DNA of 64,000 nt from an uncultured Phycisphaerales bacterium (lineage in GTDB: Bacteria > Planctomycetota > Phycisphaerae > Tepidisphaerales > Tepidisphaeraceae): assembly GCA_963755915.1 (NCBI GenBank), contig CAVWLP010000002.1, positions 3,008,001 to 3,072,000 of the forward strand, in the 5' to 3' direction. The position numbers and the translations under genes were made by a program. Below the pieces are notes generated by a model. That model made no database searches. It was given only the letters and a program-made list of their open reading frames with translations, and had not been told where the DNA came from. This document shows positions 11,505-50,696 of the stretch, piece by piece (positions within the stretch are counted from its first letter, which is position 1; each line of letters begins with the position of its first letter).

Positions 11505-11527
11505 CGGGCGATTAGCTCAGTTGGCCA
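11505..11527 (+). repeat. attL core of element 1 (tRNA-Val 5' fragment)
   Basis: CGGGCGATTAGCTCAGTTGGCCA, identical to 23040-23062. Confidence 0.95.
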
Positions 11528-11714
11528 ACACACGGCAAATGTAAGCGGGGGCGACTCCAAGCAGTTACAATCCACTGATGTTGCGAGCGCAGCATATTTG
11601 ACAGCAGTTGGTCCGGATCAGGGACTCGCAATCGTCTGCGAACGCTGGACAGCCCTACCGGCGATCTTGCGAAAAGTAATCGTGGCAATGGTCGAGGCAG
11701 CCGTGGAAAAGTAA
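11505..11714 (+). other. Orphan reading frame that becomes the integrase C-terminus in the excised circle
   Basis: RAISSVGQ-HTANV...GLAIVCERWTALPAILRKVIVAMVEAAVEK*, in the same phase across the core as int 21669. Confidence 0.7.
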
Positions 11715-11736
11715 CAGCACATTGCAGTCCTATCGG

Positions 11737-12057
11737 TCAGGGAGATAGTTTAGCCGTGCTCTTTCCGGCGAGCTCGACACCGGCCTTCGAAAGGATTTCT
11801 GCTACTTCACGGGCGTTCTTCAAAATGACTCTGTTCTCATCAGTATCGGTAAGCCCAAAATTCTCAGGCTTCGCCCCCACAGCAACTAAACAGTGCTTTA
11901 ATAGCACCTGTTCCTGATGTCCTACACCGAAGATAGCCAATTCGTTGCTCTTTTGCGAAAACTGGATTTGACCGCCGTAATAGTTCAATACCTCGATCGC
12001 AGTATTCACCGAGATTTTGCCACCACGCAACTTGCTCTTCCCGCCCCAGCCTGACAA
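11737..12057 (-). CDS. Hypothetical protein (low-GC cargo)
   Basis: 106-aa ORF, TTG start preceded by GAGG. Confidence 0.55.
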   Translation of the reverse strand: MSGWGGKSKLRGGKISVNTAIEVLNYYGGQIQFSQKSNELAIFGVGHQEQVLLKHCLVAVGAKPENFGLTDTDENRVILKNAREVAEILSKAGVELAGKSTAKLSP

Positions 12058-12394
12058 TCAATCCTCAAATGCAATCAATATACCGTGCTTAGCAACTATA
12101 AAACTACACGTGGTGAATGTAAAGACAAATCGATTTCCACAAATAAGTTAAATACCGGCCCAAATCAGTAATCCGCGCTTGCGTCAAAGATTTGAAGTAT
12201 TCTGGTCACTAGGCTTGGGTGGCCAAATACCTTCGATACTTCCCGTGTCTTGGTGACCACGGTGCGTTAGAAGGAGTTTGAGGCTGTGTGCCTCTCATCT
12301 GGCAAGTATGTGAGACGCCGCCGTCGCCAGCGTTTTGGGCGCGCTCGGCGGCGGAGTTTCGATAGACCTTTTAAGTATAAGAAAGAGGAACCAC

Positions 12395-12560
12395 TTAACA
12401 CTTTGATTTATATAAACCGCGACGGACAGTTTTTGTCCGAAAACGGACAATTTGTGGTTTTCGACGGCCAAAAAACCGTTGCAATATTGGCCAAATAGTG
12501 ACAGGGTGCTGGTAGTTCCTGACCAAAAAAGCGGGGGTAAGATGGCCGAAAACGGACAAA
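12395..12560. other. Putative plasmid replication origin (AT-rich stretch plus short repeats)
   Basis: TTTGATTTATATAAA, palindrome CGGACAGTTTTTGTCCG, and repeated CCGAAAACGGACAA / GGCCAAA just upstream of rep. Confidence 0.45.
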
Positions 12561-13162
12561 CATCGCGAGCGGAAACGAATCAGGTCGCCACGAAACGTGG
12601 GCTTCCGGTTTACCGCGTCAATCCCAGCATCCCGCCGTCGAATGGCTTGGCAACGCGACAGAAGCGTTTTGAAGTGCCAGGCGGCAAAGCTGCCGTCATC
12701 GTGGACAACGGCACCGGCGAAATCAAAGGCATCGGCGGCATGGGTTTCTGGTGGCAAGAGGAAGTGGATGCCAGCCGGTTCGTGAAACTGTTTCTGGATG
12801 GCATCAAGCAAGCCTGCGGGCTTTCCAAATCCGGCATGGCGGTCTTTGAATTGGTGTACCACCAAATCAGGGAAAATCCCGGCAATGACAAGATCGAACT
12901 GAGCCAATACATGGCACAGGATCGCGGCCTGAATGAACGAACCTTCCGCCGGGGCCTGCGGGAATTGCTCGAAAAGGAATTCTTGTACCGCAGCACCAGC
13001 GACGGCGTTTTCTTCATCAACATCCGGTTCATGTTCAACGGCGACCGGCTCGCGTTCGTGCGGACGTACCATTTGAAAGGTGCGAGCCGCCAACAGGAAT
13101 TGCCGCTTGGCGATGCCCCCGCGTTGCCCGGTCCAACCGTGCGCGAGCCGACGGGCGACTGA
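12542..13162 (+). CDS. Plasmid replication protein, RepL-like
   Basis: EEVDASRFVKLF...TFRRGLRELLEKEFL...FFINIRFMFNGDR pattern typical of RepL-type HTH initiators. Confidence 0.75.
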   Translation: MAENGQTSRAETNQVATKRGLPVYRVNPSIPPSNGLATRQKRFEVPGGKAAVIVDNGTGEIKGIGGMGFWWQEEVDASRFVKLFLDGIKQACGLSKSGMAVFELVYHQIRENPGNDKIELSQYMAQDRGLNERTFRRGLRELLEKEFLYRSTSDGVFFINIRFMFNGDRLAFVRTYHLKGASRQQELPLGDAPALPGPTVREPTGD

Positions 13163-13206
13163 ACGCTACGTCGTCGCAATTGATTTGCGCGTTACAATTC
13201 CACCCG

Positions 13207-13781
13207 ATGAAACGTTTCCGTCGAGGGCTATTCAACGGGGTGGCCGGGATCTCGCTGGTCCTTTCTCTCGCCGGGGCGGCATATGGGCACGCAGTTACAG
13301 TTACGCCGAAGACCTCATCTATTACGGACACTCCGGGGGCGTCGCCATGCACGACGCGAAAGGCCGACTCGCGTTCGTATTCGAAAATGTGATGTCGATG
13401 AGCCCGCATTTTGAGTATTACTCTTCGACGCCCGTTCGCGGACTCGATTACGCGGACCCCCGGAGGACCCCTACGCTGTGGAACCGTCTGGGCTTCTACA
13501 TCGTTCGATTCACCAGAGCGCGCGATATCCAGAAGATGACTCCTCCACCGGGCATGAGTTGGCCGCCGGTGGTTCGGTACACCGACGTCGTCGTCCCCTT
13601 CTGGCTCGTGCTTCTGGTGCTGGCATTGCTGCCTTTCTGGAACTTCGTGCTGCCTATTCTCCGGGGCGCCCGCCTCCAGCCGGGCTATTGCGCGAAATGC
13701 GGCTACGATCTTCGCGCCACGCCCGACCGTTGCCCAGAGTGCGGGACAATCCCGCCGAAAAAGGAAATCATTTCAAGCTAA
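13207..13781 (+). CDS. Membrane protein with C-terminal zinc ribbon (frameshift near 13275)
   Basis: MKRFRRGLFNGVAGISLVLSL N-terminus, TM helix VPFWLVLLVLALLPFW, CAKCGYDLRATPDRCPECG. Confidence 0.7.
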
Positions 13782-13819
13782 ACGAATCGCCGCAATTGCG
13801 GAAAATCGGAAAATCGCAT

Positions 13820-14053
13820 TTACGACGGCGTTCCGCCGGGCGGGAATCGTTTTTCCAGCAAGTCGCGGACGACATCCGCCATGATGAGGTTTTCAATCGC
13901 ACACTGGCTCTTGATTCGCTTATGCAGGCCCAGCGGCACGTCGATGGTAAGCCGCTTCATTGGCTGGCCCGCATTCTTGTCGTTAATCCATTCATCCGGC
14001 GATAGTCGTGCGGGCGATCCGGCGGGTTTGGAGCGAAAGGCAACTTTCTTCAT
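13820..14053 (-). CDS. ParG-like ribbon-helix-helix partition protein
   Basis: 77 aa, KRLTIDVPLGLHKRIKSQCA...MADVVRDLLE; overlaps the parA stop. Confidence 0.8.
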   Translation of the reverse strand: MKKVAFRSKPAGSPARLSPDEWINDKNAGQPMKRLTIDVPLGLHKRIKSQCAIENLIMADVVRDLLEKRFPPGGTPS

Positions 14054-14679
14054 GCCCCAAACTCCAAAACTTCGTTTACGAGCGCGGTTAACTCATCCCC
14101 TGCCTGGCTGTCGGGTGATGTCTCGAAAACGCTCTGGCCATGCCCTGCCGACTCGGCAAATGCCACTCGCTGGCAGATTGCGGATTTCAACACCGGCACC
14201 GGGTATTCAGCCAACGCGTCCACCACGTCGCGGCCCAACGCCGTATTTACGATTTTACGATTAATTACAAATGCCGATTTCAGGCCGGGCTTGAATACCA
14301 TCGCCTCCTGCAACAGGTCCACGATTTCCTTCGCGGCCCACACGTCGTAAGGCGACGGCTGCACAGGAATCAATACAACATCGCTGGCCATGATGGCCGA
14401 CCGGGCGACTTCGTACACCCGTGGCGGACCATCGATCAGAACATGCTCATAGCCCTGGGCCAACGCGGGCAATTCCTTGTGGATGGATGACCGGGGCAAT
14501 CCAGCCACGGGAAACAGCGGATCGCTATTTCGTGACGCCGCCCAATCGAGTGCCGAACCTTGCGGGTCGGCATCGACCAGCAACACCTTTTTCTTGCGTC
14601 GGGCCAGTGCATCGGCGATGTGAACGGCCAGCGTCGTTTTGCCGACGCCGCCCTTCTGATTCAGTAGTCCGATGATCAT
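14050..14679 (-). CDS. parA: ParA (ParF-type, type Ib) partition ATPase
   Basis: MIIGLLNQKGGVGKTT, DADPQGS, IDGPP, PVQPSPYD. Confidence 0.93.
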   Translation of the reverse strand: MIIGLLNQKGGVGKTTLAVHIADALARRKKKVLLVDADPQGSALDWAASRNSDPLFPVAGLPRSSIHKELPALAQGYEHVLIDGPPRVYEVARSAIMASDVVLIPVQPSPYDVWAAKEIVDLLQEAMVFKPGLKSAFVINRKIVNTALGRDVVDALAEYPVPVLKSAICQRVAFAESAGHGQSVFETSPDSQAGDELTALVNEVLEFGA

Positions 14680-14689
14680 ATTTTCACCG

Positions 14690-14781
14690 TGAAATTCGCG
14701 ATTGGGCGGAATTGCGATTTCACGGTTATCACGAATTGCGGAAGTGCGCAAATACAGAATTGCAGATTTACGATTTACAGG
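14690..14781. promoter_or_regulatory. Putative centromere/operator repeats upstream of parA
   Basis: GAATTGC occurs three times and GATTTAC twice; related CAATTGCGGAAAATCGGAAAATCG lies downstream of parG (13790-13818). Confidence 0.45.
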
Positions 14782-15036
14782 AGTTTCCCGGGGAAATTCC
14801 TCCTTAGCAGTGCTAAGGGAAGATGTCTGTGGGTACTCAAGAATTTTCCACTCATTATGTCTAAACGGGGCCATGGGTTCCGAAGGGCATCTCGAATCGG
14901 TGCGAATCCGCCACAAATCGGTTGCCGACACATGAAATAATCCGCTCTTTCAAGCCAATAGATGGTAGGTGGCTGGCGTGCATCGGCACACCTCTGGTTT
15001 AACGATTTGTAAAGCAATCTTGGGGTAAACTGGCAG

Positions 15037-17673
15037 ATGCTTCGCATCATTCAAAGCAATTCCGCTGCCGGGGCCATGAGCTATTACAGCACGGCGGACT
15101 ATTACAGCGAGGGCCAAGAGCTACTCGGCCAATGGCGCGGGCAGGGTGCCGAACGGCTTGGCCTGACCGGCGGCATCGACAAGGCGGCGTGGGACGCCCT
15201 GTGCGATAACCGCGACCCGGCAACGGGGCTGCCTCTTACGGCCCGCCGCAATCAGGATCGTACCGTCGGCTATGATTTCAATTTCCACGTCCCCAAGAGC
15301 GTGTCTGTGCTCTACGGTCTGACACGGGATGATCGCATCCTCGATGCATTCCAAGCGTCCGTCGATGAGACGATGCGGGATATCGAGCGCGATATGAAAA
15401 CCCGCGTGCGGGTGAACGGTAAGAACGAAGAACGCACGACCGGCAATATGGGCTGGGGCGAGTTCACGCATTTCACGTCGCGGCCCGTGGACGGCGTACC
15501 TGATCCCCACCTCCACGCCCATTGCTTCGTTTTCAATGCGACGTTCGACGAAAGCGAAGATCGTTGGAAGGCGGGTCAGTTCCGGGAACTCAAGCGTGAC
15601 GCTCCTTTCTTTGAGGCCGCGTTTCATTCTCGGTTCGCCCGGCGAATGGAGGAATTGGGCCTTGAGGTCGAGCGAACGAAAGCCGGATGGGAGTTGGCCG
15701 ATATGCCCAAATCAGTCCTCAAAACCTTTTCCCGCCGAACGGCCCAGATTGAGCAAACGGCGAAAGAGGCGGGCATTACAAATCCGGCGGATAAAGATTC
15801 CCTCGGTGCCCGGACGCGGGAAAGCAAAAAGAAGGATATGCCGTTTTCGGAACTACAGGCCGAATGGCGGTCCCGGTTGCCCGTCGAGGATCAGGACGCC
15901 ATTAACCGCGTTGCGGCAAGCATCGGTGGTCCGGCATTGCCGGAAGATCCCACGCTCGGCAAAGAGGCGGTGACGTTCGCCGCCAATCACTGGTTCGAGC
16001 GCAATTCGGTCGTACCGGAGCGAACGGTGTTGGCAAAGGCACTGAAGCACGGGGTAGGGAAGGCGAGTTTGCAATCGGTGGAGTCCGCCTTTCGGAAACA
16101 CGATCTGGTCTTCGGCGAGCGGGATGGCCGGAAATTGGTTACGTCCAATGACGTGCTGATGGAAGAATCGCGGATGCTGAAATTTGCCCGCGATGGACGG
16201 GGCACGTGTCCACGGCTATACGACGGGCCGCATTCCTTCAACGATGCCAAGCTCAACGCCGGGCAATGTCGGGCGGTTGAGCATGTGCTGAATTCCTCCG
16301 ACCGGGTCATCATCGTCAACGGCGCTGCCGGCGTCGGCAAAACCACAATGATGCGTGAAGCGGTGGCCGGTATCGAAATCGGCGGCAGCAAAGTTTTCAC
16401 CTTCGCCCCTTCTGCCGACGCCAGTCGCGGGGTGCTCGCCCAAGAGGGATTTGAGAATGCCGACACGGTTGCCCGGCTCCTCGTCGATGAGAAATTGCAG
16501 CAACAAATCAGGGATCAAGTTATCTGGATCGATGAGGCCGGTCTGATTGGAACCAAAACTATGGGCCGGGTATTCGACTTGGCCGACAAACTGGATGCCC
16601 GTGTAATCCTCTCCGGCGACCGCAGGCAACATGGATCGGTGGAACATGGTGCGGCACTGCGTTTGCTCGAAACTGAGGCCGGGTGCCTTCCCGCTGAAAT
16701 CAGGGACATTCAACGGCAAAAAGGGGAATACAAACAGGCCGTGCAATCGCTTAGCGATGGCCGCACCGAAAAGGGATTCCAGCAACTCGACCATTTGGGC
16801 TGGATTAAAGAGGTTCCCGAAGGCGAACGGTACAAGGCCCTGGCCGATGAATACGTTGCGACCGTCGCCGCCGGGAAATCAGCTCTGGTTGTCAGCCCTA
16901 CGCATTCTGAAGGCGAGCGGATTACGGGTCACATCCGCGAATCGCTCAAAGATTTGGGACGGGTGAATACGGATGAACGCGAGGTTTCGATTCTGGAAAG
17001 ATCGAACCTGACGCAAGCGGAGCGTGGCGACGCGGTGAATTACGCTCCCGGCGACGTGCTGGTGTTTCAGCAGAACGGCAAGGGATACCGCAAGGGCGAG
17101 CGAATCGTAGCCGGAGAGGGTGCGTTGCCGCTCGATCAGGCAAGCAAATTTCAGAAGTATCGCACCCGAAAGATCGCAATTGCTGAGGGTGATCTCCTCC
17201 GCGTCACGCAAAATGGGAAAACCGCCGATGGCAAGCACCGGCTCAATAACGGCGCGCAATATGTGGTGGAGGGATTCACCCGCCAAGGCGACATCCGGCT
17301 CAACAATGGGTGGACCATCGACAAAAACTTCGGGCATCTGGATTATGGGTACGTCGTCACGAGCCATGTGAGCCAGGGCAAGACGGTGGATCGCGTTTTC
17401 ATCGGGCAATCGTCCGAATCGTTCCCCGCGTCATCGCGGGAGCAATTCTACGTGTCCGTCTCGCGTGCCCGGCAGCAGGCGACGATTTACACCGATGACA
17501 AGGAATCGCTGCTCGATGCGGTGAGCCGTTCCGATGATAGGATAACGGCGACGGAATTCGTCATGGATCGGGGCTATCATGCACGCGGGATGCACATTCA
17601 GCGGATCGCGGCGATGACGCCCGCACGGGATGAACGCACGCCAACACGCGAGGGGATCGAATATGACAGATAA
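15037..17673 (+). CDS. MobF (TrwC-like) relaxase-helicase
   Basis: YYSTADYY, GYDFNFHVPKSVS, HFTSR..DPHLHAH, GAAGVGKTT, IDEAG, HVSQGKTVD. Confidence 0.95.
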   Translation: MLRIIQSNSAAGAMSYYSTADYYSEGQELLGQWRGQGAERLGLTGGIDKAAWDALCDNRDPATGLPLTARRNQDRTVGYDFNFHVPKSVSVLYGLTRDDRILDAFQASVDETMRDIERDMKTRVRVNGKNEERTTGNMGWGEFTHFTSRPVDGVPDPHLHAHCFVFNATFDESEDRWKAGQFRELKRDAPFFEAAFHSRFARRMEELGLEVERTKAGWELADMPKSVLKTFSRRTAQIEQTAKEAGITNPADKDSLGARTRESKKKDMPFSELQAEWRSRLPVEDQDAINRVAASIGGPALPEDPTLGKEAVTFAANHWFERNSVVPERTVLAKALKHGVGKASLQSVESAFRKHDLVFGERDGRKLVTSNDVLMEESRMLKFARDGRGTCPRLYDGPHSFNDAKLNAGQCRAVEHVLNSSDRVIIVNGAAGVGKTTMMREAVAGIEIGGSKVFTFAPSADASRGVLAQEGFENADTVARLLVDEKLQQQIRDQVIWIDEAGLIGTKTMGRVFDLADKLDARVILSGDRRQHGSVEHGAALRLLETEAGCLPAEIRDIQRQKGEYKQAVQSLSDGRTEKGFQQLDHLGWIKEVPEGERYKALADEYVATVAAGKSALVVSPTHSEGERITGHIRESLKDLGRVNTDEREVSILERSNLTQAERGDAVNYAPGDVLVFQQNGKGYRKGERIVAGEGALPLDQASKFQKYRTRKIAIAEGDLLRVTQNGKTADGKHRLNNGAQYVVEGFTRQGDIRLNNGWTIDKNFGHLDYGYVVTSHVSQGKTVDRVFIGQSSESFPASSREQFYVSVSRARQQATIYTDDKESLLDAVSRSDDRITATEFVMDRGYHARGMHIQRIAAMTPARDERTPTREGIEYDR

Positions 17674-18076
17674 GTTTCTGCATCATCGCCCCGGGCGTGT
17701 GCTTGACGACAGATTTGATTCGGGCCCGTCAGCGGATTCCGGCGGTGTCGATGATTTTCATTCGTTTGGCTGGCTACGCGGTATTCGCGAGCGGGCCACA
17801 ATGCTCGAGCTGCGGAAGAAATCGGGCGATGTCCTGGCCATTGGCTATAGCTGGATTGAGTGTGTGGAATTCAATCCAACCCAAGGGATTACGTTGCACG
17901 TTCATGGCGACAAGATTCACATCAAAGGCCGCAATCTGAACGCCGAAGTCCGGCCCGAAGTTCGACTGTTTCAAGGAATCGCCCGTCACCGCGTGGCATG
18001 GGTGCAGGAAGCGGACAGGCCGCGAAACCTGACGGGGGACAAGCAACTGACGATTATTGACCAAATCGCCTGGTGA
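17663..18076 (+). CDS. Hypothetical protein coupled to the relaxase
   Basis: ATG overlaps the relaxase end; GAGGGG upstream. Confidence 0.65.
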   Translation: MTDKFLHHRPGRVLDDRFDSGPSADSGGVDDFHSFGWLRGIRERATMLELRKKSGDVLAIGYSWIECVEFNPTQGITLHVHGDKIHIKGRNLNAEVRPEVRLFQGIARHRVAWVQEADRPRNLTGDKQLTIIDQIAW

Positions 18077-18160
18077 CGCTTGATCAAGCCTCAGCCAAAT
18101 CTTGTCGATGCCAATAAATGATAAGAGTTCCGCGTTCGTGGTTATCAACCGGATTTAGAA

Positions 18161-18670
18161 ATGTGGTTACCCAAGGACGAACGGCGTTTGCTTGCCGGTT
18201 ACTTCAAGATAATTGGCGAAATTGATAAGGAACGCATTTATCGCGAATCTGATCTAATTCCTCTACTGTGGTGGCGACAAAAGATTGAATCCATCAAGAC
18301 ATATCGAGAATCAGTAGGCAGGTCGGATGGTTCGGCCAGCATGGAAAATATGACGGCGTTCAAGCGCGAGGTCAAACAGCTACTCGCCGATATGGCACGG
18401 ATAAAGAGAGCCAACAAGTTGTTGGTCGCCCGGAAGATGGTGGCGATTCGACCACATGCCCACGAGCAGAATGTCATCCTAATTTCATTGACCGTTAAGG
18501 GATTCGACTTTGGAAGGCGATATGGCAATTGACTAGATTCAACGGGACTTTGGTTTGCCTATTACAAGAATCACTGGATTTGGCTAATTGTGGCTGCCGT
18601 CGCGGGCGGCATTATTCCGAAATTAATTGATCGTATCGGAGCGATTATTGCCGCCTTGCACCGACCGTAG
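18161..18670 (+). CDS. Hypothetical membrane-anchored protein with an internal TGA at 18530-18532
   Basis: 123-aa ORF; the frame stays open after TGA (LDSTGLWFAYYKNHWIWLIVAAVAGGII...) to TAG 18670. Confidence 0.5.
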
Positions 18671-19297
18671 CTAGACCCCGTGTCCATGAATGAGCCGCCG
18701 CACAGAAGTTCTCCCAATACCGAGCCGTTTGGCGATCTGGCTCTTGCTGATTCCCGAAAGAAACAGCTTGTTTGCCTCATCCGCAAGTGCTGTCACTGTC
18801 GCGGGTCTTCCGTGCGGCTTCCCGTTCTTCCTGGCCTCTGCGATTCCGGCTTTGACGCGATCCCGCAGGATGTCACGCTCGTATTGTGCAAACACTGCCA
18901 GCATCCCGGCCATTGCCTGGCCGCTCGGTGTCGTGAAATCCAACGAATCGTTCGGCGAAACAAAATTGACGCCCACTGCGTGCAATTCCTTCAATGTCGT
19001 CACAAGGTCGAGCAACGAACGGCCCCAGCGATCCAGCTTCCAGACCAGGACGATATCAATCTCCCGTCGCATTGCAGCGTGCAGCACTTCATTCCTTGCC
19101 GGACGATCTTTCGCCCCGGACCCGACTTCCTCAATCTGCATGGCGACAGTCCAGCCCCGTCGCTCGGCGTATTCCCGCATCGCCGAAATTTGCAGCGGCA
19201 ATGTCTGCTGGTCGTGGGTCGAAACACGTGCGTACAACCCGACGCGTAAACGGTCGCCTGCCCCCTGGCCAAAAACCTCCCCCCGATTTTCGGTCAT
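18671..19297 (-). CDS. Serine resolvase/invertase with C-terminal HTH
   Basis: YARVST, VWKLDRWGRS, GRP, IAKRLGIGRTSVRR. Confidence 0.93.
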   Translation of the reverse strand: MTENRGEVFGQGAGDRLRVGLYARVSTHDQQTLPLQISAMREYAERRGWTVAMQIEEVGSGAKDRPARNEVLHAAMRREIDIVLVWKLDRWGRSLLDLVTTLKELHAVGVNFVSPNDSLDFTTPSGQAMAGMLAVFAQYERDILRDRVKAGIAEARKNGKPHGRPATVTALADEANKLFLSGISKSQIAKRLGIGRTSVRRLIHGHGV

Positions 19298-19416
19298 GCC
19301 CCCTCGATAATTCAACTGCTTGCAGAAAACCCTTTACACCGGCCAAAAACTATAGTTTATGGTCAGGTCAGGACGTATCACGATTCAGCAAAAGGGACAA
19401 GAGAAATTCTCGCCGC

Positions 19417-19857
19417 ATGGAAAACCTGCTCACGATTGCACTGGAAGCCCATAACAATGATCTCAATCATCACCGCCGCTATGAAATTACCGTCGGTCGG
19501 GATTTGCTGGACGATTGGACGCTGAGCATCCGCTACGGTCGCGTCGGCGGCGGATATCAAACGCAAAAGTTTTCCGGGAAAGACAAGCATCAAATCCGTG
19601 CTATCATTCGGGAACGGTTACGGCGTAGGCGATCCGCCCCAAAACGGATTGGATGTGCATACCGGGTAACGACATTCGACGCTGTTGCGGAATTCGACAC
19701 ATCCGCATGGTTGCCGAATGATTCGATTGTCTTTCTTCCTGACCCACCATTTTCCCTGACCCCGATGGTGGACAAAATTGCTTTCAGCGGAGCGAAGCGG
19801 GGTCAAGGTGGAACCGTCGGAGAAGAGGCTCCATGTACTCATGGAGTAGCACCTTGA
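19417..19857 (+). CDS. WGR-domain protein
   Basis: RRYEITVGRDLLDDWTLSIRYGRVG. Confidence 0.75.
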   Translation: MENLLTIALEAHNNDLNHHRRYEITVGRDLLDDWTLSIRYGRVGGGYQTQKFSGKDKHQIRAIIRERLRRRRSAPKRIGCAYRVTTFDAVAEFDTSAWLPNDSIVFLPDPPFSLTPMVDKIAFSGAKRGQGGTVGEEAPCTHGVAP

Positions 19858-19969
19858 GGCCGATTCGTGGAGCGTACAATGTCGGAATTGGGGGCAGGGA
19901 AAGCTTGCCCTAGAAATCGCTCCTCCCTCAGAAATAATTGCTCTACGCTTTTAATCAACTTCTGCTGGA

Positions 19970-20422
19970 TCACTTACGCGGGTCGAACGGAACCGGCCTA
20001 CCACATTTTTCACAGAAGCGTGATTCGGGGTGAAAATTGAATGGAAACGCGTGAACCATGGTGGAGTTTTCAGTCAGGACCGCCATGACTCCACTGCATG
20101 TTGATGCAAACACACCATTGTTGTACTGCATTCCTGTTGTGCTACCCGCGAAAAGGATAAGGTTCTTGCGTCCCCAGTCGTCAATTTCAAGACATCCAGA
20201 CGCCATTGCTGACACCATGTGATGTTGATAGCTGTTCCAAGTCGAATTAAGGAATACCGAGTTGATCGAATAAATCTCAGTTGGGACGGTATGTTTTACA
20301 TATTTTTCCAACTGGTAGTCGTAGGGATATTTGCCTCCTGCATTGGCCTCAAGCGTTGAAGAATCGACGGGCACTATGAGACCTGAATTCCGTGCGCATT
20401 CATGGCAATAATATTTAGACAT
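19970..20422 (-). CDS. Hypothetical protein with terminal CxxC pairs (low-GC cargo)
   Basis: 150 aa, CHEC at the N-terminus and CEKC at the C-terminus. Confidence 0.7.
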   Translation of the reverse strand: MSKYYCHECARNSGLIVPVDSSTLEANAGGKYPYDYQLEKYVKHTVPTEIYSINSVFLNSTWNSYQHHMVSAMASGCLEIDDWGRKNLILFAGSTTGMQYNNGVFASTCSGVMAVLTENSTMVHAFPFNFHPESRFCEKCGRPVPFDPRK

Positions 20423-20520
20423 GGCGAAGGTGGTTTTGTAACACGCCGCCGCTAACAGGCTGCCCGTGCAGTTATCCGAGCACCTAACTCTATCGGCTGG
20501 ACCGCAAAAATAGCAAATAC

Positions 20521-20859
20521 TTACGGCATTTCTTCCCGAAGTTTGTTTTGCCAGTCCTGGGCGGTATGGAAGACGTGCAGGATATGGACCTCTTTATCGT
20601 CGAAATTGTAGACGGCCACATGGCCATGCCCGCTGGTCCTCCGCCTGATGACGACATAACGCAAATCGGGCCGTGTGCTGACTTTCTTGCCCCTGGCATA
20701 GCTGCTGGCCAGACCGGCGATGCTTTCCTTTAGATACCGGAGATAAGCATCGGCATGGGGGACGCCGTAACGTCCAGCGTTCCATCGCCAAACATCGTCG
20801 AGTTCATCAATCGCCGTCGGGGAGCGAATGACCGTCAGCGGGGATTGTTCCGAAGCCAT
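20521..20859 (-). CDS. Type II toxin, RelE/ParE family
   Basis: SPTAIDELDDVWRW...HVAVY...VHILHVFHTAQDW. Confidence 0.8.
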   Translation of the reverse strand: MASEQSPLTVIRSPTAIDELDDVWRWNAGRYGVPHADAYLRYLKESIAGLASSYARGKKVSTRPDLRYVVIRRRTSGHGHVAVYNFDDKEVHILHVFHTAQDWQNKLREEMP

Positions 20860-21113
20860 TCCGCCCTACGTTTCGCAAGTTCCGCGTCCGCTTGGTCTGC
20901 CGTATAGAAATTCCCGGCTTTGATTTCCGCTTCCGCCTTGTCAATGTGGGCAAGCCGTTCGGGCGTGAAAAGATGGTCGAGGTTTTCGGTTCCCTCGTGA
21001 AGATCATAGCTCAAAACGTCGGCGATGTATTCGTCAACGGTCGAGAACCCGGCTTCCGTCGCCCGGCGTTGGACCTCTTTGTAAAGATGATCGTTGAGTT
21101 GGACTTGTTGCAT
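20835..21113 (-). CDS. Putative antitoxin (RHH/ParD-like)
   Basis: Acidic small ORF upstream of and overlapping the toxin; EAGFSTVDEYIADVL. Confidence 0.7.
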   Translation of the reverse strand: MQQVQLNDHLYKEVQRRATEAGFSTVDEYIADVLSYDLHEGTENLDHLFTPERLAHIDKAEAEIKAGNFYTADQADAELAKRRAEWLRNNPR

Positions 21114-21417
21114 AGGCAATCTTTCTGAACGGCTGTCCGACATTATAACGGCATTTGAGGCCGATTGTCATTGAGAAATTGGCCCCTGGCATTGCAGGAT
21201 TCGACCCGAACAGGCACACGCCGCGTTGCGGCGGCCGGAGATTTGCCGGTCTATTCAGGTCGCTTGAAGATTTTTGGTGAAAGATTTCGGCCCTTTGACG
21301 CAAATAGTCTTAGGGTGTGTTCTGCGGCCACGGGCAGCGTCCGACCCCATTGTACAGTCAATGGAAATAAGGCCGCGCGCTCCCGCGCGGTCGGTGTCGA
21401 ACAACGGAGATTTCACG

Positions 21418-21648
21418 ATGCAGATTCAAACAATCCAAACGCAAACGGAAAATCCTCCCGCTTTGCTGACTCTGGCGATGATCCGGCGATATTATGTTCC
21501 GATTGCTTCCCGCACCCTGTTCCGGCTGATTTCGTCGGGGCGATTCCCCAAGGCGGATATCGGCATCGGCGGGAAGCTGCGGCTATGGAAGCGTGAAACG
21601 GTTGAAGCGTGGATCGCGTCCAACGCGGTGCGGGTGGGCGTAGAATAG
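21418..21648 (+). CDS. Excisionase/AlpA-like HTH protein
   Basis: ASRTLFRLISSGRFPK...GGKLRLWKRETVEAWI; directly upstream of int. Confidence 0.8.
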   Translation: MQIQTIQTQTENPPALLTLAMIRRYYVPIASRTLFRLISSGRFPKADIGIGGKLRLWKRETVEAWIASNAVRVGVE

Positions 21649-21668
21649 CGTGAAAGCGATGGTGCTTT

Positions 21669-23306
21669 ATGGCCAGTGTTTTCAAACGTGGCGGCAAGAA
21701 AAACCGCGAAGGAAAGTACGTCGCATCGTTCTTCGATGAGAATGGGAAGCGTGTCAGCCGAAGCACGGGCACGACGGATTACGATGCCGCTTGCCAGGTT
21801 GCGGCACGATGGGACACCGACGTTGCCCTGCGGCGCCATGGCGTGATTGACGCGACGCAAGCCCGCATCGCCGATCAGAACCGGCAGCATATCAGGGAGC
21901 ATGTCGCCGATTATCTGGCCCATTGCAGGCATGTCGGGCAGGACAAAGCCCACATTGCCATCAAAACATCGCAGTTGGCCAAGCTCGTGGCTGGAATCAA
22001 CGCAACCCGGCTGTCCGATCTTGAGCCGAACCGGGTAGAGCGCTATCTGGCCAATCTGGTGACAGCGGGCAAATCACACAGAACGCACAACCAAAATCGG
22101 GCCACGGCAGTCGCGTTCATGCAATGGTGTTTCGAGCAAGGGCGAGTAGCGTCCAACTTGCTGAAAATCGTCCCGACGCTCAATGAAGCCAAGGATCGAA
22201 GACGTGTGCGGCGGGCGTTGAGCGAAGATGAATTGTCCCGACTGCTCGCGGTATCCGATGAACGTCGGCCCTACTACCTGTTTGCCTATTACACCGGCTT
22301 GCGGGTCAAGGCCGTCAAAGCCGCTATGTGGGGCGACGTGGATTTCGACAGTGCTTTGATTCGCGTAAAAGTCGGCAACGCCAAGGGCAAAAAGGATGAC
22401 ATTTATCAGCCTTTGCATCCCCGATTGCTGCAAGAATTGCGGCGGATGAGAAGTGAAATGCCGTTTGCATCCCAGGCTGATCCGATTTTTCCCGGTGTGC
22501 CGCTGGTCAAGACGTTTCACCGGGATTGCCAGCGGGCCGGAATCGAGCGATATGACGCGGACGGCAGGCAACTGGACCGTCATGCCCTCCGCACCACGCT
22601 CGGCACTCACCTGGCCCGTGCGGGCGTTCTGCCGCAACTGGCGATGAAGGTGATGGGCCACAACGACGTGCAGACCACGATGAAGCATTACACGGCGTTA
22701 CGTCTGGCGGACACGGCCAAGGCGATGAACGCTCTGCCGTCCATCGAACCGAACGCCAATGCGAATGCCGCGGCCCTGCGGGCGACGGGAACGGACCCGG
22801 CTAATGTGCCGTCAAATTTGTCGGGTTTCGGCGCACAGCATGTTCGACAGCAGTTGTGCGGCTCGGATACGCAAAATCTGACACCCACTGTCGCTGATAG
22901 CGAAACGACAAAATCGTCCGCACAAAAAACTGTGGTGTTCATTTCGCCCCAGAAAAACAGGGGTTTTGGCGATATTCAGCAGCGTGCGACAGCCATCGAC
23001 TTGAAGGAAATCGCCGCTCGCGATACCATCGAAAAAGTACGGGCGATTAGCTCAGTTGGCCAGAGCGTACGGATCACACCCGTGAGGTCACAGGTTCGAG
23101 CCCTGTATCGCCCATTTCCACTTCTTCGCACTGCGTCGCATTATCTCGCACAGAGTCGCAAGGCCCCGCAAGCGTGGGACTTACGGAATCTTCGCCGGAA
23201 CTGGGTGCGATATCCTGCGACGCCTTGCGAGCAGATGCTGCACCGGATTCTGCACCGCCTGTCTCAGACGCTGCTTCCGCCGCCTTTGCAAAATGCTCAT
23301 CGGTGA
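21669..23306 (+). CDS. int: Tyrosine integrase; frame reads through attR and tRNA-Val
   Basis: YTGLR, HALR, MGH and HY catalytic motifs; no stop before the att core at 23040. Confidence 0.93.
   Translation: MASVFKRGGKKNREGKYVASFFDENGKRVSRSTGTTDYDAACQVAARWDTDVALRRHGVIDATQARIADQNRQHIREHVADYLAHCRHVGQDKAHIAIKTSQLAKLVAGINATRLSDLEPNRVERYLANLVTAGKSHRTHNQNRATAVAFMQWCFEQGRVASNLLKIVPTLNEAKDRRRVRRALSEDELSRLLAVSDERRPYYLFAYYTGLRVKAVKAAMWGDVDFDSALIRVKVGNAKGKKDDIYQPLHPRLLQELRRMRSEMPFASQADPIFPGVPLVKTFHRDCQRAGIERYDADGRQLDRHALRTTLGTHLARAGVLPQLAMKVMGHNDVQTTMKHYTALRLADTAKAMNALPSIEPNANANAAALRATGTDPANVPSNLSGFGAQHVRQQLCGSDTQNLTPTVADSETTKSSAQKTVVFISPQKNRGFGDIQQRATAIDLKEIAARDTIEKVRAISSVGQSVRITPVRSQVRALYRPFPLLRTASHYLAQSRKAPQAWDLRNLRRNWVRYPATPCEQMLHRILHRLSQTLLPPPLQNAHR
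23001..23029 (+). promoter_or_regulatory. Element-encoded replacement promoter for tRNA-Val, inside int
   Basis: TTGAAG-17 nt-TACCAT; same boxes and spacing as 11466-11494. Confidence 0.75.
23041..23114 (+). tRNA. tRNA-Val(CAC)
   Basis: Acceptor GGGCGAT/ATCGCCC+A, D-arm GCTC/GAGC, anticodon arm TACGG-ATCACAC-CCGTG, T-arm ACAGG-TTCGAGC-CCTGT; CCA not encoded. Confidence 0.96.
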
Positions 23307-23500
23307 TCTGCAGGTAGTGATCGCGCGCTACCACCTCGCTGTTGCCAATCCAGGCACACACCACGTGAGCAGGCCAGCTTTCCGTCAGTTCCGTCTGGCG
23401 TGAAGACCGAAGATTCTGAAAAAGCTTTGGTTACGGCTCGATCCCTGCCTTGGCAAGAATCCAGAGAAATTGTGTGCGAATGTTCATCTGTTCCGACGTT
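23074..23500 (-). pseudogene. C-terminal remnant of a second tyrosine integrase, reading into the tRNA antisense strand
   Basis: ILAKAGIEP*PKLFQNLRSSRQTELTESWPAHVVCAWIGNSEVVARDHY...MGDTGLEPVTSRV*; in-frame TAA, N-terminus missing. Confidence 0.8.
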
Positions 23501-23577
23501 CATCTGTTCTGATTCTCGGAATTTCCACGCGACATTTTGCATATTACATCGGCCGGTCGATTTCCGTAGTCCCGTCG

Positions 23578-37184: not shown

Positions 37185-37186
37185 GA

Positions 37187-40140: not shown

Positions 40141-40177
40141 TCAGCCAATACGACCAACTCGACACCACGCGGCTTCC

Positions 40178-42398: not shown

Positions 42399-44122
42399 GG
42401 GGTGGACTCCCTTCGGCTCTGCTCAGGGCAGGCCTGTAAAGGTTGTGCGGCAGGCAAAGCCTCCGCTTGGGTGATTGCGTCGCGTACGAACTGTCCGTAA
42501 TCGGCCAGTCCGCGGATGATTGGATGTTCCTGAACAAACTCGAAGTGTTGTTGAACCGGTGCGCCGTTTTGGTGTTCGATGAGCTGCCGCAGGGAGCGCA
42601 GGTGATACGCGCCATGCCCCAGAGCAATCTCGCAGGCTCGTTCCACGGCCGGTCGCGGCTGCTGATTGGCCAGCGACAGCAGCCCCATCAACACGCGCAC
42701 GCCTTCGATGCCGCGATGCTGAAGCATTGACTGCGCCCACTGCGTGGCGTGCGGCCCGATGCATTCGATCCGCTGGAGAAGCCAGGTCGTTCCACGCTCG
42801 ATGCCGCTGATCTTCTCCGGCAGGATATGGGCGTCTTGCGTCGAGAACCTGCCCGGCGGACGCTGCGCGTGCAGAGCGATCGCACGCATCTTCTGATCGA
42901 ACAGCCGGACCGTGCGCCGTCCCACCGCGCCCAGACCCGCTGGCCCAAAAACTCCGGCGGGACCGAATAGTACGCCCCCTTGATCTCCACGTGCCCGTCG
43001 CGGTGAACACTGCGCAACGCCTCGGTGAAAAGATCGAATCGCACCGGCGGCAGAGCCAACAGTGCCGGCTTCTCTACCTGCTCGAAGACTTCCTTCACCT
43101 GCCGCCGCGTCGTGCCGTGGATGCGCGTGTCGGCCACGCTCTTCTCCCACGTCAGCAGATGCGCGTTCTGATCCGAGAGCGAGGCGAATTGCCGGCCTTT
43201 GAGAGCATTGCTCTTCACATAGCCGATGCCCCGCTCGATCTTCCCCTTGTGCCGCGGCGTGTACGGCTTGGTGGGCAGAATGGCGATTCCATAATGTTCG
43301 GCGAACGACCGGACCTTGGGACACAACTCCGCCTCGAACCAGTCCGCCCGCGTCACCGCCGCGCGAAGATTGTCGATCACCAGCGCTGACGGCATCCCGC
43401 CGAAGTGCGTAAAGGCATTTTCCAGACAACGCAGAAAATCATCGGTCGTCTGCCGCTCCACCGCCTCGGCGTACCCCTTGCGGCTGTGGCTCAGCACAAT
43501 GCGGAAGACCCAGGTTGCTTTGCGTTTGCCGTCAGGACCGACCAGGGCGCACCCCGGCCGAAGTCCACCTGCGCCTCGGCTCCCGGCTCGCATTCCATCC
43601 GGCGAAAGGGCGCCGGCGCGGCAGCCGAGAGCTTCTTGATGAACCGGCGCACGCTGTAATAGCTGCCGGCATAGCCGTGATCGCTGGAGATGTCTTGATA
43701 AATCCGCTGGGCCGTCAGCCCGGCTTCCAACTTCTGAACAATGACCTCACGCCAGGGCGATGCCGTACTGACCGACCCGATGGGCGCGCCGGATAACCCG
43801 GTGGCGCGCTCTCCGAGCCGCCTGCGGCGAGCACCGTCGAGCCGCCTGCGGCGAGCACCGTCGAGCCGCCTGCGGCGAGCACCGTCGAGCCGCCTGCGGC
43901 GAGCACCGTCGAGCCGCCTGCGGCGAGCACCGTCGAGCCGAGGGCGCGCTGGCCGGTTTTGAATCCGATCCGGGCGCCGCAGGATCGCCGCCCGACAACC
44001 GGATGTGGCGTCCAACGGTCTCCCGGTGAACGCCGAGTTGGCGGGCGATGTTCCGATTGGACCAGCCGCTGCGCAAGTGCCAAAATTGCTTGTACTTCCG
44101 CCATCTTGAGTTGATTGGCCAT
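42395..44122 (-). CDS. istA: IS21 transposase IstA (frameshifts)
   Basis: MANQLKM...SNRNIARQLGVHRETV HTH, PGAEAQVDFG, LSHSRK, DNLRAAV, KGKIER, YSVP. Confidence 0.92.
43814..43940. repeat. 24-bp tandem repeat, 5.3 identical copies, within istA
   Basis: Unit CGAGCCGCCTGCGGCGAGCACCGT at 43814, 43838, 43862, 43886, 43910 plus a partial copy. Confidence 0.95.
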
Positions 44123-46406: not shown

Positions 46407-46774
46407 TTGAAACTCCGATCCGCCACGATTCACCCGCAAAAGAATAGTTAATATACTTTTGTTGCCGCGGATGTCACGAAATAAGTTCTCTGGCGACAGC
46501 GATTTAGCGTTACGTTGGCTCTCCAACCTGCGATGATGGGTTGACGCATCTTGAACCAGGTGATGAATTCCCACGCGAACCTCGCCCCCCAACAACGACC
46601 TGCCACGACGATCAGTCTCGATCCAATATCATCTAATTTCTCACTCACAGCCATGACTTCCGTAAAATTTCGGATAACGCATTCCGCATATTTCCGCTGT
46701 GATGCACAATTATAAATCCATATCCTCCATTGGGTTCGTTCAGGTCCTTGGTCAGTTCATAACGAGGTGCATCC

Positions 46775-47433: not shown

Positions 47434-47752
47434 TTCAAGCAAGTGATTTGGAAGATCGCGCAGTCAACGCGATCTGTTGCCATTAACTCGGTCTAATGCA
47501 AGACAGTGTGAGGTTTATTGATCCCAAATCTCCCAATTCGTGCCTTGCCCGCGTCGTCCCTGATCTGCTGCATTGCTCTGCTCGCGATCGCGCAGACCGC
47601 GCCCACTACACAGCCGACAACACTCGCGCGAATTCCCGCGGGCCTGAGTAGGATCGCGCGAAGCTTAAGCCGCGGTCCTCGCCCGCATGATTAACGTGAC
47701 GAGAGGAATAGTGCGATTGCCGGCAAGCTCTGGCAGAGAAAGGAGGCCGAAA

Positions 47753-48942
47753 ATGAGCATGTCGTCTGCGGCCGCGGCCCATGACTCGTCGGATTATTCG
47801 ATGGTCCTGGGAGGTCCGCTTTACCAGTTATATTTGCGGGCGCATCGTGCGGCCCCCCTTGGAGCTGTTGGCGCTGCGCATCGTCGTCATCACCCTAGTT
47901 ACCTGGGTGCCGTTGCTCGTACTCAGCGTGATTTCCGGGCTCGCTTGGCGGGGCGCGGGTGCCATTCCTCTACGACATTGAGGTTCAGGTCCGTTTTTTG
48001 GCTTCCCTCCCTCTGTTGATCTTCGCCGAGGTGCTGGTCCATCGGCGGATTCGCCCGATCATTATGGAATTCGTCGAACGCGGGATCATCACTCCGGAAG
48101 TGCGGCCATCGTTCGACAGAATCATCGACTCGGCGATCCGGTGGCGGAACTCCGTCACAGCCGAAGTCGTGTTAATTCTGCTCGTATCGACGGCCGGGTA
48201 TATGCTGTGGCGGAACCAGGTTGCGCTGCGGACGACCACTTGGTACGCCGACCCAACCGCCTCGGGCATGCACCTGACCCTACCGGGCATTTATTATGCG
48301 TACTTCAGCATGACGATTTACCGGTTCATGCTGTTCCGGTGGTATTACCGGCTGATCATCTGGTTCATCTTTCTATGGCGCGTGTCGCGCCTGCCCCTGA
48401 AGCTGATTCCGACGCATCCGGACCGTACGGGCGGACTGGAGTTCCTGCAAGGCGGCGCATACGCGATCACGCCGGTGTTCGTTGCTCAATCCATGTTTAT
48501 GGCCGGCGTATACGCAAATCGCATCTTTTATGAGGGCGCCAGCTTCTACACGTTTCGGATCGAAATCGTGGCCATCATGTTGATCTTCATGCTGCTCGCC
48601 CTCGGACCGCTGATGGTGTTCGCGTCACGGATCATGGACTGCCGACGCAAAGGGCTGATCGAATATGGGAAACTGGGCAGCGACTACGTTCGCGACTTCG
48701 AGCGAAAGTGGATCTCCGACCGGAAGGAAGTCCATGAGCCCCTGCTCGGCACTGACGACATTCAATCCCTGGCCGATCTGGCTAACAGCTTTGAAATCAT
48801 CCGTAGTATGACCGGCCTGCCGTTCGGAAAAGAGACCGTTCTCAGGCTGGCCCTCATGATCTTGCTGCCCTTATTGCCGCTGGTGCTCACCGTCATCCCG
48901 CTTAGCGAGGTGATCAGTCGGTTGTTCAAGGCGATGCTCTAA
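47753..48942 (+). CDS. Conserved multi-pass membrane protein (frameshifts)
   Basis: AAGGAGG RBS, SMVLGGPLYQL, PTHPDRTGGL, DIQSLADLANSF. Confidence 0.8.
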
Positions 48943-48997
48943 CAGAAAAAGACGACCTGGATCGATGGAAGACAATTCAGTCGGGAGGATCTATGCG

Positions 48998-50205
48998 ATG
49001 CGTCATTTTCAGATGGGCGGCCTGTTTGCTGCCTCTGTTTGCCGTTGCCGGATGCATTCTGAACGGTTGCACGAGCGAGACGCGCGCTCCGCAAACCCAG
49101 GCGCAGCTTTTGGAACTGGCGCCAACACGGATGCGAGTTTCGCGACGGAAACCCGGGAGATGATGGGCCGCCTGCTCGCCCGCACCAAGGCCCAATACGA
49201 CCAATACACCTCAGGCAAGAGGCTGCGGCCGCCCCAAATCGATATGCTGATCATTTCCGGCGGCGGGGATTGGGGCTCCTTTGGGGCGGGATTCCTCAAA
49301 GGGTGGGAAAGAATCTCGGCTGACGATCCGATGGCGATGCCGCAATTCACCGCCGTGACTGGCGTCAGCACCGGCACGCTGATCGCGCCATTCGCGTTCC
49401 TCGGAGACCCGCAATCCATCGAGACAATCGATCACCTTTATCGAAATCCCCAGCCCGACTGGGTGAAGCGCGCGGCTGGCTTTACTTCCTGCCCAACAAC
49501 ACCTCATTCGACGAAATCCCCGGACTCGAACGTGAGCTTCGTCAGCATGTGACCGACGACCTGGTTCGCCGCATCGCGCATGCTGGCGCCGACGGGCGCG
49601 TGTTGGTAGTCGGGGCGTCGAATATCGACGATGATAGTCCGCGCGTTTTCGATCTCGTCGCCGAGGCCCACCGCGCTGTCGAAGAGAACGACTTCGAGCG
49701 GATCAGGGAAATCCTGCTCGCCTCGGCCGGGATTCCTGGAGTGTTTCCGTTTCGAATCATCGACGGCCAGATGTACGTTGACGGCGGCATAACAGGCAAC
49801 ATCGTTTACGGTGGGCGCATTGAGGAGAAGGACAGTTTCCAGGCCACGTGGCAGAACGCCTATCCGAACACGCCGATCCCCAGGATGCGGATCTGGGTGA
49901 TCTTCAACAATCAATTTCGTCCGCCGCCGCAGGTGATAGAACCACGTTGGCCGGCGGTCATTCAGCGCAGCTTGGAGTTGGGGACCCGCGCTTCCACGGC
50001 GACGGCGCTGCGGCACCTCCTGGCTATCGCGGAGATCTCGCGGCTGAAACGCAACGCGGACATCGAAGTACGAATCGTCTCGATTCCGGAGGACTGGTCC
50101 CCGCCCGTGGAGGGGACCTTCGTCAAGAAAAGCATGAATGCCTTGGCCGACCTAGGAGAGAAGATGGGCGCCAACCCCGCAAGTTGGCAAACCGAGGTGC
50201 CCTAA
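48998..50205 (+). CDS. Patatin-like phospholipase (frameshifts)
   Basis: SGGGDWGSFGAG, GVSTG, ASAGIPGVFP, YVDGG. Confidence 0.88.
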
Positions 50206-50522
50206 ATGCCTCGACTGTTACGACGACGGCGACCACAAATCGACGATAATAGCACGCTTTGCAGCAGACCGTTGATGCAGCCAAACCTTATTTACAGAGT
50301 GGCAGGGACTAGAATTTCGACCGCGAAATTTAAGGAATGGCGCGTCTTATCCAGCACGCTCATTTGGAAATGTTCGAAATTAAGAAGAACGTTGAGCGCT
50401 ACTTTCGACTGGGAACCGGCTACTGTTGCCCGATAAAACTACATATATGAGCAATTGCTGCTTGAGGAGCGGGGAAAATGAATTTGCGTAGGCGCACCGC
50501 TGGCCAAGATGAATATGGGCTA

Positions 50523-50696
50523 TCAAAATGAACAGTCAGAAGGCAGTCCGGACCACCCGGCAATGATTTCCATCAACGCTGATGGCAGAGGCGTCGCTGC
50601 AGAAGACGAAACTGCACCAGATTCTGCACCACCCTTGAATACGACCCCTTGTTTTTCCGGCGATTCTTGAATAAGTTCAAATCCTGTATCGCCCAA
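50523..50696 (-). other. Orphan reading frame that becomes the C-terminus of the second integrase in the excised circle
   Basis: GDTGFELIQESPEKQGVVFKGGAESGAVSSSAATPLPSALMEIIAGWSGLPSDCSF*, same phase as MGDTG of the int remnant. Confidence 0.65.
50675..50695 (+). repeat. attR of island 2 (tRNA-Val 3' fragment)
   Basis: 18/21 identity to 23094-23114; the last 13 bp are exact. Confidence 0.88.

Follow-up and report, generated by a model that had tools for sequence, protein, structure and literature searches.

The stretch considered here, referred to below as the window, is the 64,000 nucleotides (nt) at positions 3,008,001 to 3,072,000 of contig CAVWLP010000002.1 from an uncultured Phycisphaerales bacterium (GenBank assembly GCA_963755915.1). 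A tRNA-Val(cac) gene in it is the common target of two inserted elements, element 1 and island 2, and in each of them an integrase gene, int1 or int2, is read without a stop into the tRNA. This raises the question of what becomes of the C-terminus of such an integrase when the element is excised and its two attachment (att) cores are rejoined. An earlier note, made from the letters alone, had proposed a switch in which the integrase keeps an intact catalytic domain throughout but carries a small, conserved, helical tail only while the element is excised. We consider it highly probable that both insertions at tRNA-Val are planctomycete mobile elements in which the tyrosine-integrase gene holds the whole attachment site of the free element (attP) in its 3' part. 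The features of element 1 on which the argument turns are these (window coordinates):

11505-11527, + strand: attL core, displaced tRNA-Val 5' end (22 nt) plus one base, exact 23-nt identity to 23040-23062
11528-11714, + strand: detached int1 C-terminal part, 61 codons and stop, in phase across the core
21669-23306, + strand: int1 in the integrated state, 545 amino acids (aa), open reading frame (ORF) crossing the core and the whole tRNA
23040-23062, + strand: attR core of element 1, at the beginning of the intact tRNA-Val gene
23041-23114, + strand: tRNA-Val(cac), called by ARAGORN

The product of int1 has the R-H-R-H/W-Y residues and the Phage_integrase domain (PF00589) of tyrosine recombinases, the Pfam match covering aa 184-344 (E 1.5e-19); in an alignment of 70 sequences R212, H305, R308 and Y341 are invariant and H331 is nearly so. 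As the note had described, its frame is free of stops up to the tRNA, which it enters as ...RDTIEKVRAISSVGQ (peptide ...RAISSVGQ), and the core copy at 11505 lies in the same codon phase, reading ...RDTIKKPRAISSVGQ and then on to ...LAIVCERWTALPAILRKVIVAMVEAAVEK, with its stop at 11712-11714. The repeated block sits inside a 74-nt repeat of 76% identity, and its right-hand copy forms codons 458-465 of int1, downstream of Tyr341. A scripted in-silico attP junction gave a single open frame of 526 aa with 61 residues past the core, whereas the integrated gene was computed to encode 545 aa with 80 residues past the core, and these are the very figures of the note. Within the 61 residues, positions 11616-11711 encode a two-helix tail with the motif W-x-x-L-P. 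This tail 1 scores 25.8 bits against a tail profile (E 4.6e-5 at genome scale) and was recovered at E 1.9e-4 among the 161,779 six-frame segments of the genome, with a profile built solely from seven foreign unsplit integrases, in which core and tail stand in one ORF. No Pfam family matched tail 1, or the corresponding tail 2 of island 2, at E<=1.

Whether or not the phase of the tail relative to its integrase is random had been offered as a check, and it turned out not to be: integrase and tail were in phase across a tRNA-derived core in 21 of 21 evaluable pairs (five from the genome itself, 14 from other genomes of the phylum and two of two from metagenome contigs), against one in three expected by chance, a count that includes related pairs (two loci at tRNA-Ala within one genus, two at tRNA-Asn) and therefore overstates independence. 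On these frames the arrangement is not chance. The profile found six tail segments at E<1e-3 in this genome, tail 1 included, and there are likewise six int1-family ORFs. In five of the six pairings integrase and tail lie 6-15 kb apart on one strand, in the order expected for circularisation, and have a tRNA-derived core of 18-30 nt in common; all five are in phase and open. The core belongs to a called tRNA gene in four cases (Val, Gly, Cys, Met) and in the fifth to a tRNA-like site without a called tRNA.

Across the phylum the tail model matches 63 of the 401 genomes sampled. All 55 foreign matches at E<=1e-5 were taken, in 52 regions of at most 20 kb, so that longer elements are missed; not one of these tails is joined to an integrase domain, and most have an in-frame tRNA-derived peptide ahead of them. 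In 15 regions an integrase of the family lies downstream on the same strand, and 14 of these share a 17-67-nt core and are in phase without exception. In 10 of the 14 the core coincides with a tRNA gene that was called, its type being Lys, Glu, Asn, Leu, Gly, Ala or Ser. The fifteenth (L017) was left out of the phase count because its integrase ORF runs beyond the fetched stretch, and L040 has a stop at the very start of its core, though in phase. In the 14 foreign loci, as in int1, the core falls within the integrase ORF at a point past the codon for the catalytic tyrosine.

Proteins in which nothing has been split off are found as well. When the best 120 of the 421 int1 homologues with E<=1e-5 (from 7997 scored candidates) were sorted by their ends, seven proved to be unsplit, with the tRNA-derived peptide followed by the W-x-x-L-P tail in one protein, 30 end right after ...VG of the core peptide, three read through the core as int1 does, about 47 have other tRNA-like ends by a rough pattern of our own, and 33 were left unclassified. 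Since 30 of these 120 homologues have nothing beyond the core peptide, the tRNA-derived tail of 80 aa that int1 has when integrated is, as far as its relatives tell, incidental, and what is conserved is the loss of one tail, not the gain of another. A profile made from 44 tails gave four hits among longer proteins that passed at that database size, and three of the four are PF00589 integrases of 497-596 aa. Two of these three unsplit, tail-bearing proteins, P0125 and P0127, belong to the int2 subfamily, and natural unsplit forms thus defined by sequence exist in both integrase subfamilies. At least 93 of the 120 int2 homologues listed (of 685 with E<=0.001) end in a tRNA-antisense peptide by our own pattern, and the tail profile found no tail on these 120.

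In a metagenome set of 93 integrase ORF segments from 80 loci, 34 run into a called tRNA gene, which they enter at its 3' end from the opposite strand in 31 cases and at its 5' end on the same strand in three. Five segments are unsplit and carry the tail; a further seven run off the contig and 12 are fragments. No tRNA gene was called at the five unsplit loci, and the three larger of these contigs extend 1-10 kb past the integrase stop. By their layout the five are non-integrated configurations. Two metagenome contigs are of separate note. L118 holds, besides an unsplit integrase, three more detached tails (6531-6669, 10059-10392 and 13210-13306), a pattern that looks like repeated insertions or tandem relics. 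On the short contig L087 (54-1861) the integrase ORF and the tail frame overlap in different frames, and this may be an unsplit form with a frameshift or sequencing error.

Island 2 shows the same layout at the other end of the tRNA, in damaged form:

23077-23430, - strand: int2 remnant, of whose 437 codons the last ~118 are left; its frame runs into the 3' end of the tRNA
23094-23114: near core of island 2, tRNA-Val 3' end
50523-50674, - strand: detached truncated int2 tail, in phase, with a stop after W-S-G-L-P-S-D and without the second helix
50675-50695: far core of island 2, displaced tRNA-Val 3' fragment, identical at 18 of 21 bases, with an uninterrupted match of 13 at the tRNA end

The remnant ends ...MGDTGLEPVTSRV with a stop inside the tRNA 3' end, and the far copy continues in phase as GDTGFELIQ...ALMEIIAGWSGLPSDCSF to a stop of its own. 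The joined frame was computed to be open over 162 codons, which bears out the claim that the two are in phase, and the pattern L-x2-[VI]-x3-W-x2-L-P that had been noticed is indeed present in both tail 1 and tail 2. We take the far site of island 2 as real because an 18-nt motif pair, described below, is unique and because core, motif and tail follow one another as in unsplit relatives such as P0125. The 27.6-kb interior encodes a sulfatase, a sulfatase-modifying enzyme, a HAD hydrolase, a glycoside hydrolase, a porin and a sensor protein, and since no mobility gene was found among the 10 large ORFs scanned, island 2 (23094-50695) is, on its gene content, an old, immobile and decayed relic of a second subfamily that uses the tRNA 3' end. 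With int2 cut to its last ~118 codons and tail 2 ending after L-P, it would be unable to switch, so that the proposal of a switch in both elements stands for the architecture of element 1 and not for island 2. Nor can the two integrases be called unrelated, as they had been: they are distant members of one superfamily, int1 and the int2-like P0125 being 28% identical over 74 aa (E 0.002). Two full-length, near-identical paralogues of int2 (437 aa) are present elsewhere in the genome.

The conserved tail is about 30 aa long, with the pattern D-P-x-L-x2-V-x2-A-W-P-x-L-P-x-A-V-R-A-G-I-V-A-M-V-x-A-A. In the AlphaFold2 model of the unsplit P0119, residues 1-380 are confidently predicted, residues 386-500 fall below 50 in predicted local distance difference test score (pLDDT), and the tail is predicted as two helices at 503-514 and 517-531 with pLDDT 74-92. 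The predicted N-terminus consists of a three-strand sheet and a helix, and the best Foldseek match is full-length lambda integrase (1z1b, E 3.8e-11, 377 columns). Over the 52 tails the codon-position entropies are 1.12, 0.81 and 1.56 bits for the first, second and third position, i.e. the third is the most variable and the second the least, a signal that is partly built in because the tails were chosen by a protein profile; the median ratio of nonsynonymous to synonymous change (dN/dS) is 0.39. The tails of the int1-like P0102 (515-541) and the int2-like P0125 (475-501) are identical at 26 of 27 positions, whereas the cores of the two proteins show 28% identity over 116 aa. This suggests, as a reading of sequence alone, either that an attP-tail module has been exchanged between elements or that the tail acts on a partner common to them. 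The residues past the second helix vary in number and sequence from tail to tail, which argues against a terminal degradation tag. When the tail (44-row alignment) was predicted in complex with the integrase core (int1 aa 1-365, 70-row alignment), the score was 0.00, a value that speaks neither for nor against binding. The nearest entries in the ESM Atlas are short, unnamed 'hypothetical proteins' of 38-54 aa from Planctomycetota, with scores of 0.88-0.89.

Between catalytic domain and tail, 16 of the 19 pairs show direct repeats, 10 nt or longer, on the two sides of the core, although some of the 10-mers in foreign pairs may be chance, the shuffled control having been run inside the window only. 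On the integrase side they precede the core by 128-197 nt, and on the tail side they follow the core start by 66-123 nt; they are often doubled in tandem and often read in different frames on the two sides. The copies in the window are:

11600-11610, + strand: GACAGCAGTTG, a candidate arm-type site on the P' side, 95 nt past the beginning of the core
22846-22856, + strand: GACAGCAGTTG, a candidate arm-type site on the P side, within the int1 ORF and 194 nt ahead of the core
23239-23256: first copy of TGCACCNGATTCTGCACC, the candidate arm-type motif of island 2, within the int2 remnant at 125-142 nt from the near core
50613-50630: second copy of TGCACCNGATTCTGCACC, 65-82 nt from the far core

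There are only two copies of GACAGCAGTTG in the window, read in different frames, and exactly two of the 18-nt TGCACCNGATTCTGCACC; for either motif none of 100 shuffles reached two copies. The TGCACCNGATTCTGCACC type of motif is also found in L003 and L009. The flanking repeats have the layout of candidate arm-type sites, a reading that fits the predicted three-strand N-terminal domain and the lambda integrase as best fold match, and the whole attP seems to be translated within the integrase ORF. Keeping in mind that the linker stays below pLDDT 50 while the tail helices are confidently predicted, we interpret the poorly conserved middle as a DNA signal that happens to be translated, and the tail as the only conserved protein element past it. 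A nearly invariant A-T-G-T occurs right after the catalytic domain, at aa 371-376 of int1, in all family members aligned; it starts the attP-encoded linker and is followed by a Q-Q-rich stretch, which in element 1 coincides with the arm-type repeat.

From these observations the following course of events can be proposed. The ORF of the excised form would encode, in order, arm-binding, core-binding and catalytic domains, a disordered linker and the conserved two-helix tail, the linker of about 120-180 aa being attP in translation: a P-arm repeat, the tRNA-derived core and a P'-arm repeat. Recombination with the tRNA would break the ORF at the core, and the integrated gene would keep its catalytic parts, lose the stretch encoded by the P' arm together with the tail, and end wherever the tRNA gives a stop. 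The tail would remain in phase at the far end of the element, from where precise excision would rejoin it to the integrase. By analogy with Int and IntX of phage Mx8, the tail-less integrase of the integrated element might be less active or differently directed. That the tail-bearing integrase of the free element is the integration-competent form, and that loss of the tail stabilises the integrated state, is the reading we adopt, at about even odds in our estimate. More tentatively still, and with more doubt than confidence, the near identity of tails on such divergent cores and a disordered linker of at least about 120 aa lead us to the idea of the W-x-x-L-P tail as a portable licensing module, which would dock on a common host factor, on an element partner or on another tail and mark the integrase of the excised copy as integration-competent, its loss locking the element in. 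On this view a further layer would be possible for elements at the tRNA 5' end, where tRNA 5' processing of the overlapping integrase message would strip off the stop codon and so lower the amount of the integrated form.

Three other explanations of the tail frames have to be weighed. They could be neutral read-through, with a frame across attP that is open by accident and a peptide without a role: the linker is poorly conserved and predicted to be disordered, a G+C content of 59% favours long chance ORFs, int1 itself runs through 80 meaningless codons, and neither a partner nor an activity of the tail has been found. We nevertheless hold this to be most improbable, as not one of the 21 pairs is out of phase, the tail can be made out in 63 of 401 genomes with change biased to the third position, it ends unsplit integrases of two subfamilies, and nearly identical tails sit on cores with little identity. 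The tail might instead be a separate small gene that is expressed while the element is integrated, from a start at the element's end such as the displaced tRNA promoter. The short Planctomycetota proteins nearest to it in the ESM Atlas offer a lead, though no more than that, in this direction, and at the attL of element 1 a promoter-like motif and a tRNA 5' fragment point into the tail. Most tails, however, are preceded in frame by a tRNA-derived peptide and read on from it in the integrase phase, not from a start codon of their own, the unsplit forms fuse the tail to the integrase, and elements of the 3'-end type have no tRNA promoter directed at the tail, all of which makes a separate gene very unlikely.

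It is conceivable in principle that the conserved stretch acts as DNA, as a protein-binding site of attP (for an excisionase or a host bending protein, for instance), and that the amino-acid pattern is a by-product. The region does lie inside attP, and the linker is elsewhere clearly conserved as DNA, with its arm repeats in different frames and its promoter-like motif; but variation is greatest at third and smallest at second codon positions, the conserved pattern is that of a confidently predicted amphipathic helix-turn-helix (HTH), and the arm repeats are situated upstream of the tail and not within it. A role as DNA is thus hardly to be expected. What we prefer is a tail that works as protein and is joined to the integrase by excision, and here the tally of in-phase pairs and the unsplit forms in both subfamilies go with what the earlier note had drawn from two loci.

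Several observations count against this preferred reading, apart from the possible chance repeats and the built-in share of the codon signal mentioned above. Among the metagenome segments, 35 of 93 end without a called tRNA, 23 of them less than 60 aa past the catalytic domain, so that some relatives may terminate short of the core, or may be fragments. Terminal overlaps are absent from the five unsplit contigs, which hence give no sign of circles. Contigs of four low-depth soil-metagenome runs, compared with 10800-23700, contained no attP or attB joint, and the same contigs cover the integrated junctions at attL (11371-11927) and attR (22141-23114). No far core was detectable within 80 kb of either of the two full-length int2 paralogues. 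Tail 2 scores 6.5 bits against the tail profile (E 52) and is alone not significant. Finally, the sixth tail of the genome, at C2:3575371-3575712 on the - strand (E 3.1e-6), has no tRNA fragment ahead of it and no in-phase partner was found for it; it may be a relic or part of an element with a non-tRNA site.

As precedents the earlier note had named the SSV1-type integrases and the repressor of phage BPs, and the likeness of an attachment site within a gene holds for both; the closest precedent, though, is Int/IntX of Mx8. In passages on this phage, attP is located within int, which receives a new 3' end on integration (PMC6070905, PMC4383910), and integration is described as modifying rather than inactivating the integrase (PMC6070905). 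In the Mx8 record, Int (5208-6809) contains a tRNA-antisense peptide and about 110 further residues, and the HTH gene uoi lies upstream. Work by Magrini (1999) is said to have placed arm sequences on both sides of the core within int, and the details of Int and IntX, the activity of IntX included, are those reportedly given by Tojo (1996) and Magrini (1999). The two systems have in common attP in the 3' part of a tyrosine-integrase gene, a tRNA target, a catalytic domain that stays whole while the C-terminus is replaced on integration, an HTH gene just upstream of int and, in silico in our case, an in-frame restoration of the C-terminus by precise excision (526 vs 545 aa; all 21 pairs); candidate arm repeats that flank the core within int would be a further point of agreement. 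They differ in that Mx8 Int and int1 have no detectable sequence relation beyond the fold (best BLASTP E 0.057), that the Mx8 tail is without the W-x-x-L-P motif, and that the planctomycete arrangement is a trait of two large subfamilies rather than of one phage, in elements that look mobilizable and plasmid-like and of which some use the tRNA 5' end. Given Mx8, the mechanism is already established in kind, and what is new are the conserved two-helix tail across distant subfamilies, the tRNA 5'-end variant and the breadth within the phylum.

In SSV-type integrases, according to PMC7253208, the recombination site is likewise inside the integrase ORF and integration splits the gene. The SSV split, however, separates parts needed for activity, whereas here aa 184-344 and Tyr341 are upstream of the core and all conserved catalytic residues remain in the integrated int1 ORF. 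BPs resembles our elements in having attP inside a gene, so that integration changes the C-terminus of a protein (PMC4557955). The gene crossed is the repressor in BPs and a PF00589 integrase here. The BPs repressor tail has been reported as a degradation tag, while the extreme C-terminus of the planctomycete proteins past the second helix is variable in length and sequence. Lambda Int (1z1b) is the best match of the predicted fold, and the repeats flank the core in the manner of arm sites. In lambda, attP is outside int and the short C-terminal tail is not exchanged by recombination, whereas in the planctomycete elements attP is inside int and the C-terminal tail would be exchanged. A literature search, which covered papers without their supplements, found none on planctomycete integrases that span attP.

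What had been a curiosity of one phage, Mx8, thus comes to look like a general rule, followed by many mobile elements within a phylum, in which a recombinase would be rewritten by its own reaction and the enzyme would 'know' whether its gene is integrated. The short tail, conserved across subfamilies, offers a clean target for studies of directionality in tyrosine integrases. There is also a consequence for annotation: integrase genes are called with meaningless tRNA-derived ends and detached tails as orphan small ORFs, and the tail profile together with a tRNA fragment marks the far end of an element at single-base precision.

The displaced fragment in element 1 is the 5' end of the tRNA. An element that inserts at a tRNA 5' end must supply a promoter. 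The similarity between the two core copies of element 1 reaches 52 nt upstream of the tRNA (76% over 74 nt) and includes a promoter-like motif:

11466-11494, + strand: first copy of TTGAAG-17 nt-TACCAT, in the chromosomal flank, ending 11 nt before the displaced 5' piece of the tRNA
23001-23029, + strand: second copy of TTGAAG-17 nt-TACCAT, within the int1 coding sequence, 11 nt upstream of tRNA-Val

The motif matches 8 of 12 consensus positions, and a strict consensus promoter scan called nothing at either core copy. The loose pattern TTGnnn-16..18-TAnnnT is found upstream of 21 of 83 tRNA genes as compared with 0.66% of 5000 random 70-mers, and TACCAT stands at the same distance upstream of tRNA-Val(gac). 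The copy at 11466-11494 is probably the native tRNA-Val promoter and that at 23001-23029 probably a copy of it supplied by the element inside int1. Among the islands tabulated by Islander, 159 of 3919 have a 5' fragment (PMC4383910). A terminator-like hairpin with a T-run at 11455-11480 (- strand) overlaps the -35-like hexamer upstream of attL and faces the element side.

Double occupancy of a tRNA is seen once more in this genome. At C2:3565429-3568110 the tRNA-Val(gac) gene (3566764-3566837) is occupied on both sides like tRNA-Val(cac): an int1-family gene on its 5' side stops 180 nt short of it, and a full-length int2-family gene reads into its 3' end.

The remaining genes of element 1, which is flanked on the left by a chromosomal M29 peptidase gene, are:

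12452-20859, both strands: element 1 cargo region (Pfam)
12452-13162, + strand: RepL-like gene, weak match (Pfam)
14050-14931, - strand: ParA-type ATPase (Pfam)
15037-17673, + strand: TrwC relaxase-helicase (Pfam)
20521-20859, - strand: ParE-family toxin (Pfam)
20835-21143, - strand: probable antitoxin beside the ParE-family toxin
21274-21648, + strand: candidate excisionase-type HTH gene adjoining the 5' side of int1 (Pfam HTH_17, E 6.8e-5, weak)

The HTH_17 match reaches 23.5 bits, under the curated cut-off of 27, and the true start of this gene is probably further into the ORF. Because RepL-like, ParA, TrwC and ParE genes occur together in the cargo, element 1 (11505-23062, 11.5 kb) is, judging by its gene content, an intact integrative mobilizable plasmid-like element that uses the tRNA 5' end. 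A search of viral contigs returned a single weak match and no sign that these elements are phages. The idea that the tail at 11505 is the 3'-end remnant of an older integrase in a tandem array was rejected, as the tail comes after the core and the order is the same in all pairs.

Two minor observations concern the interior of island 2. ARAGORN called an 89-nt tRNA-Gly(tcc) at 27175-27263 (- strand) within a sulfatase ORF (26585-27841, - strand; Pfam Sulfatase, E 1e-34), a call that is probably false. At 43790-43964 of the window a 24-nt unit is repeated in six tandem copies, four of them exact.

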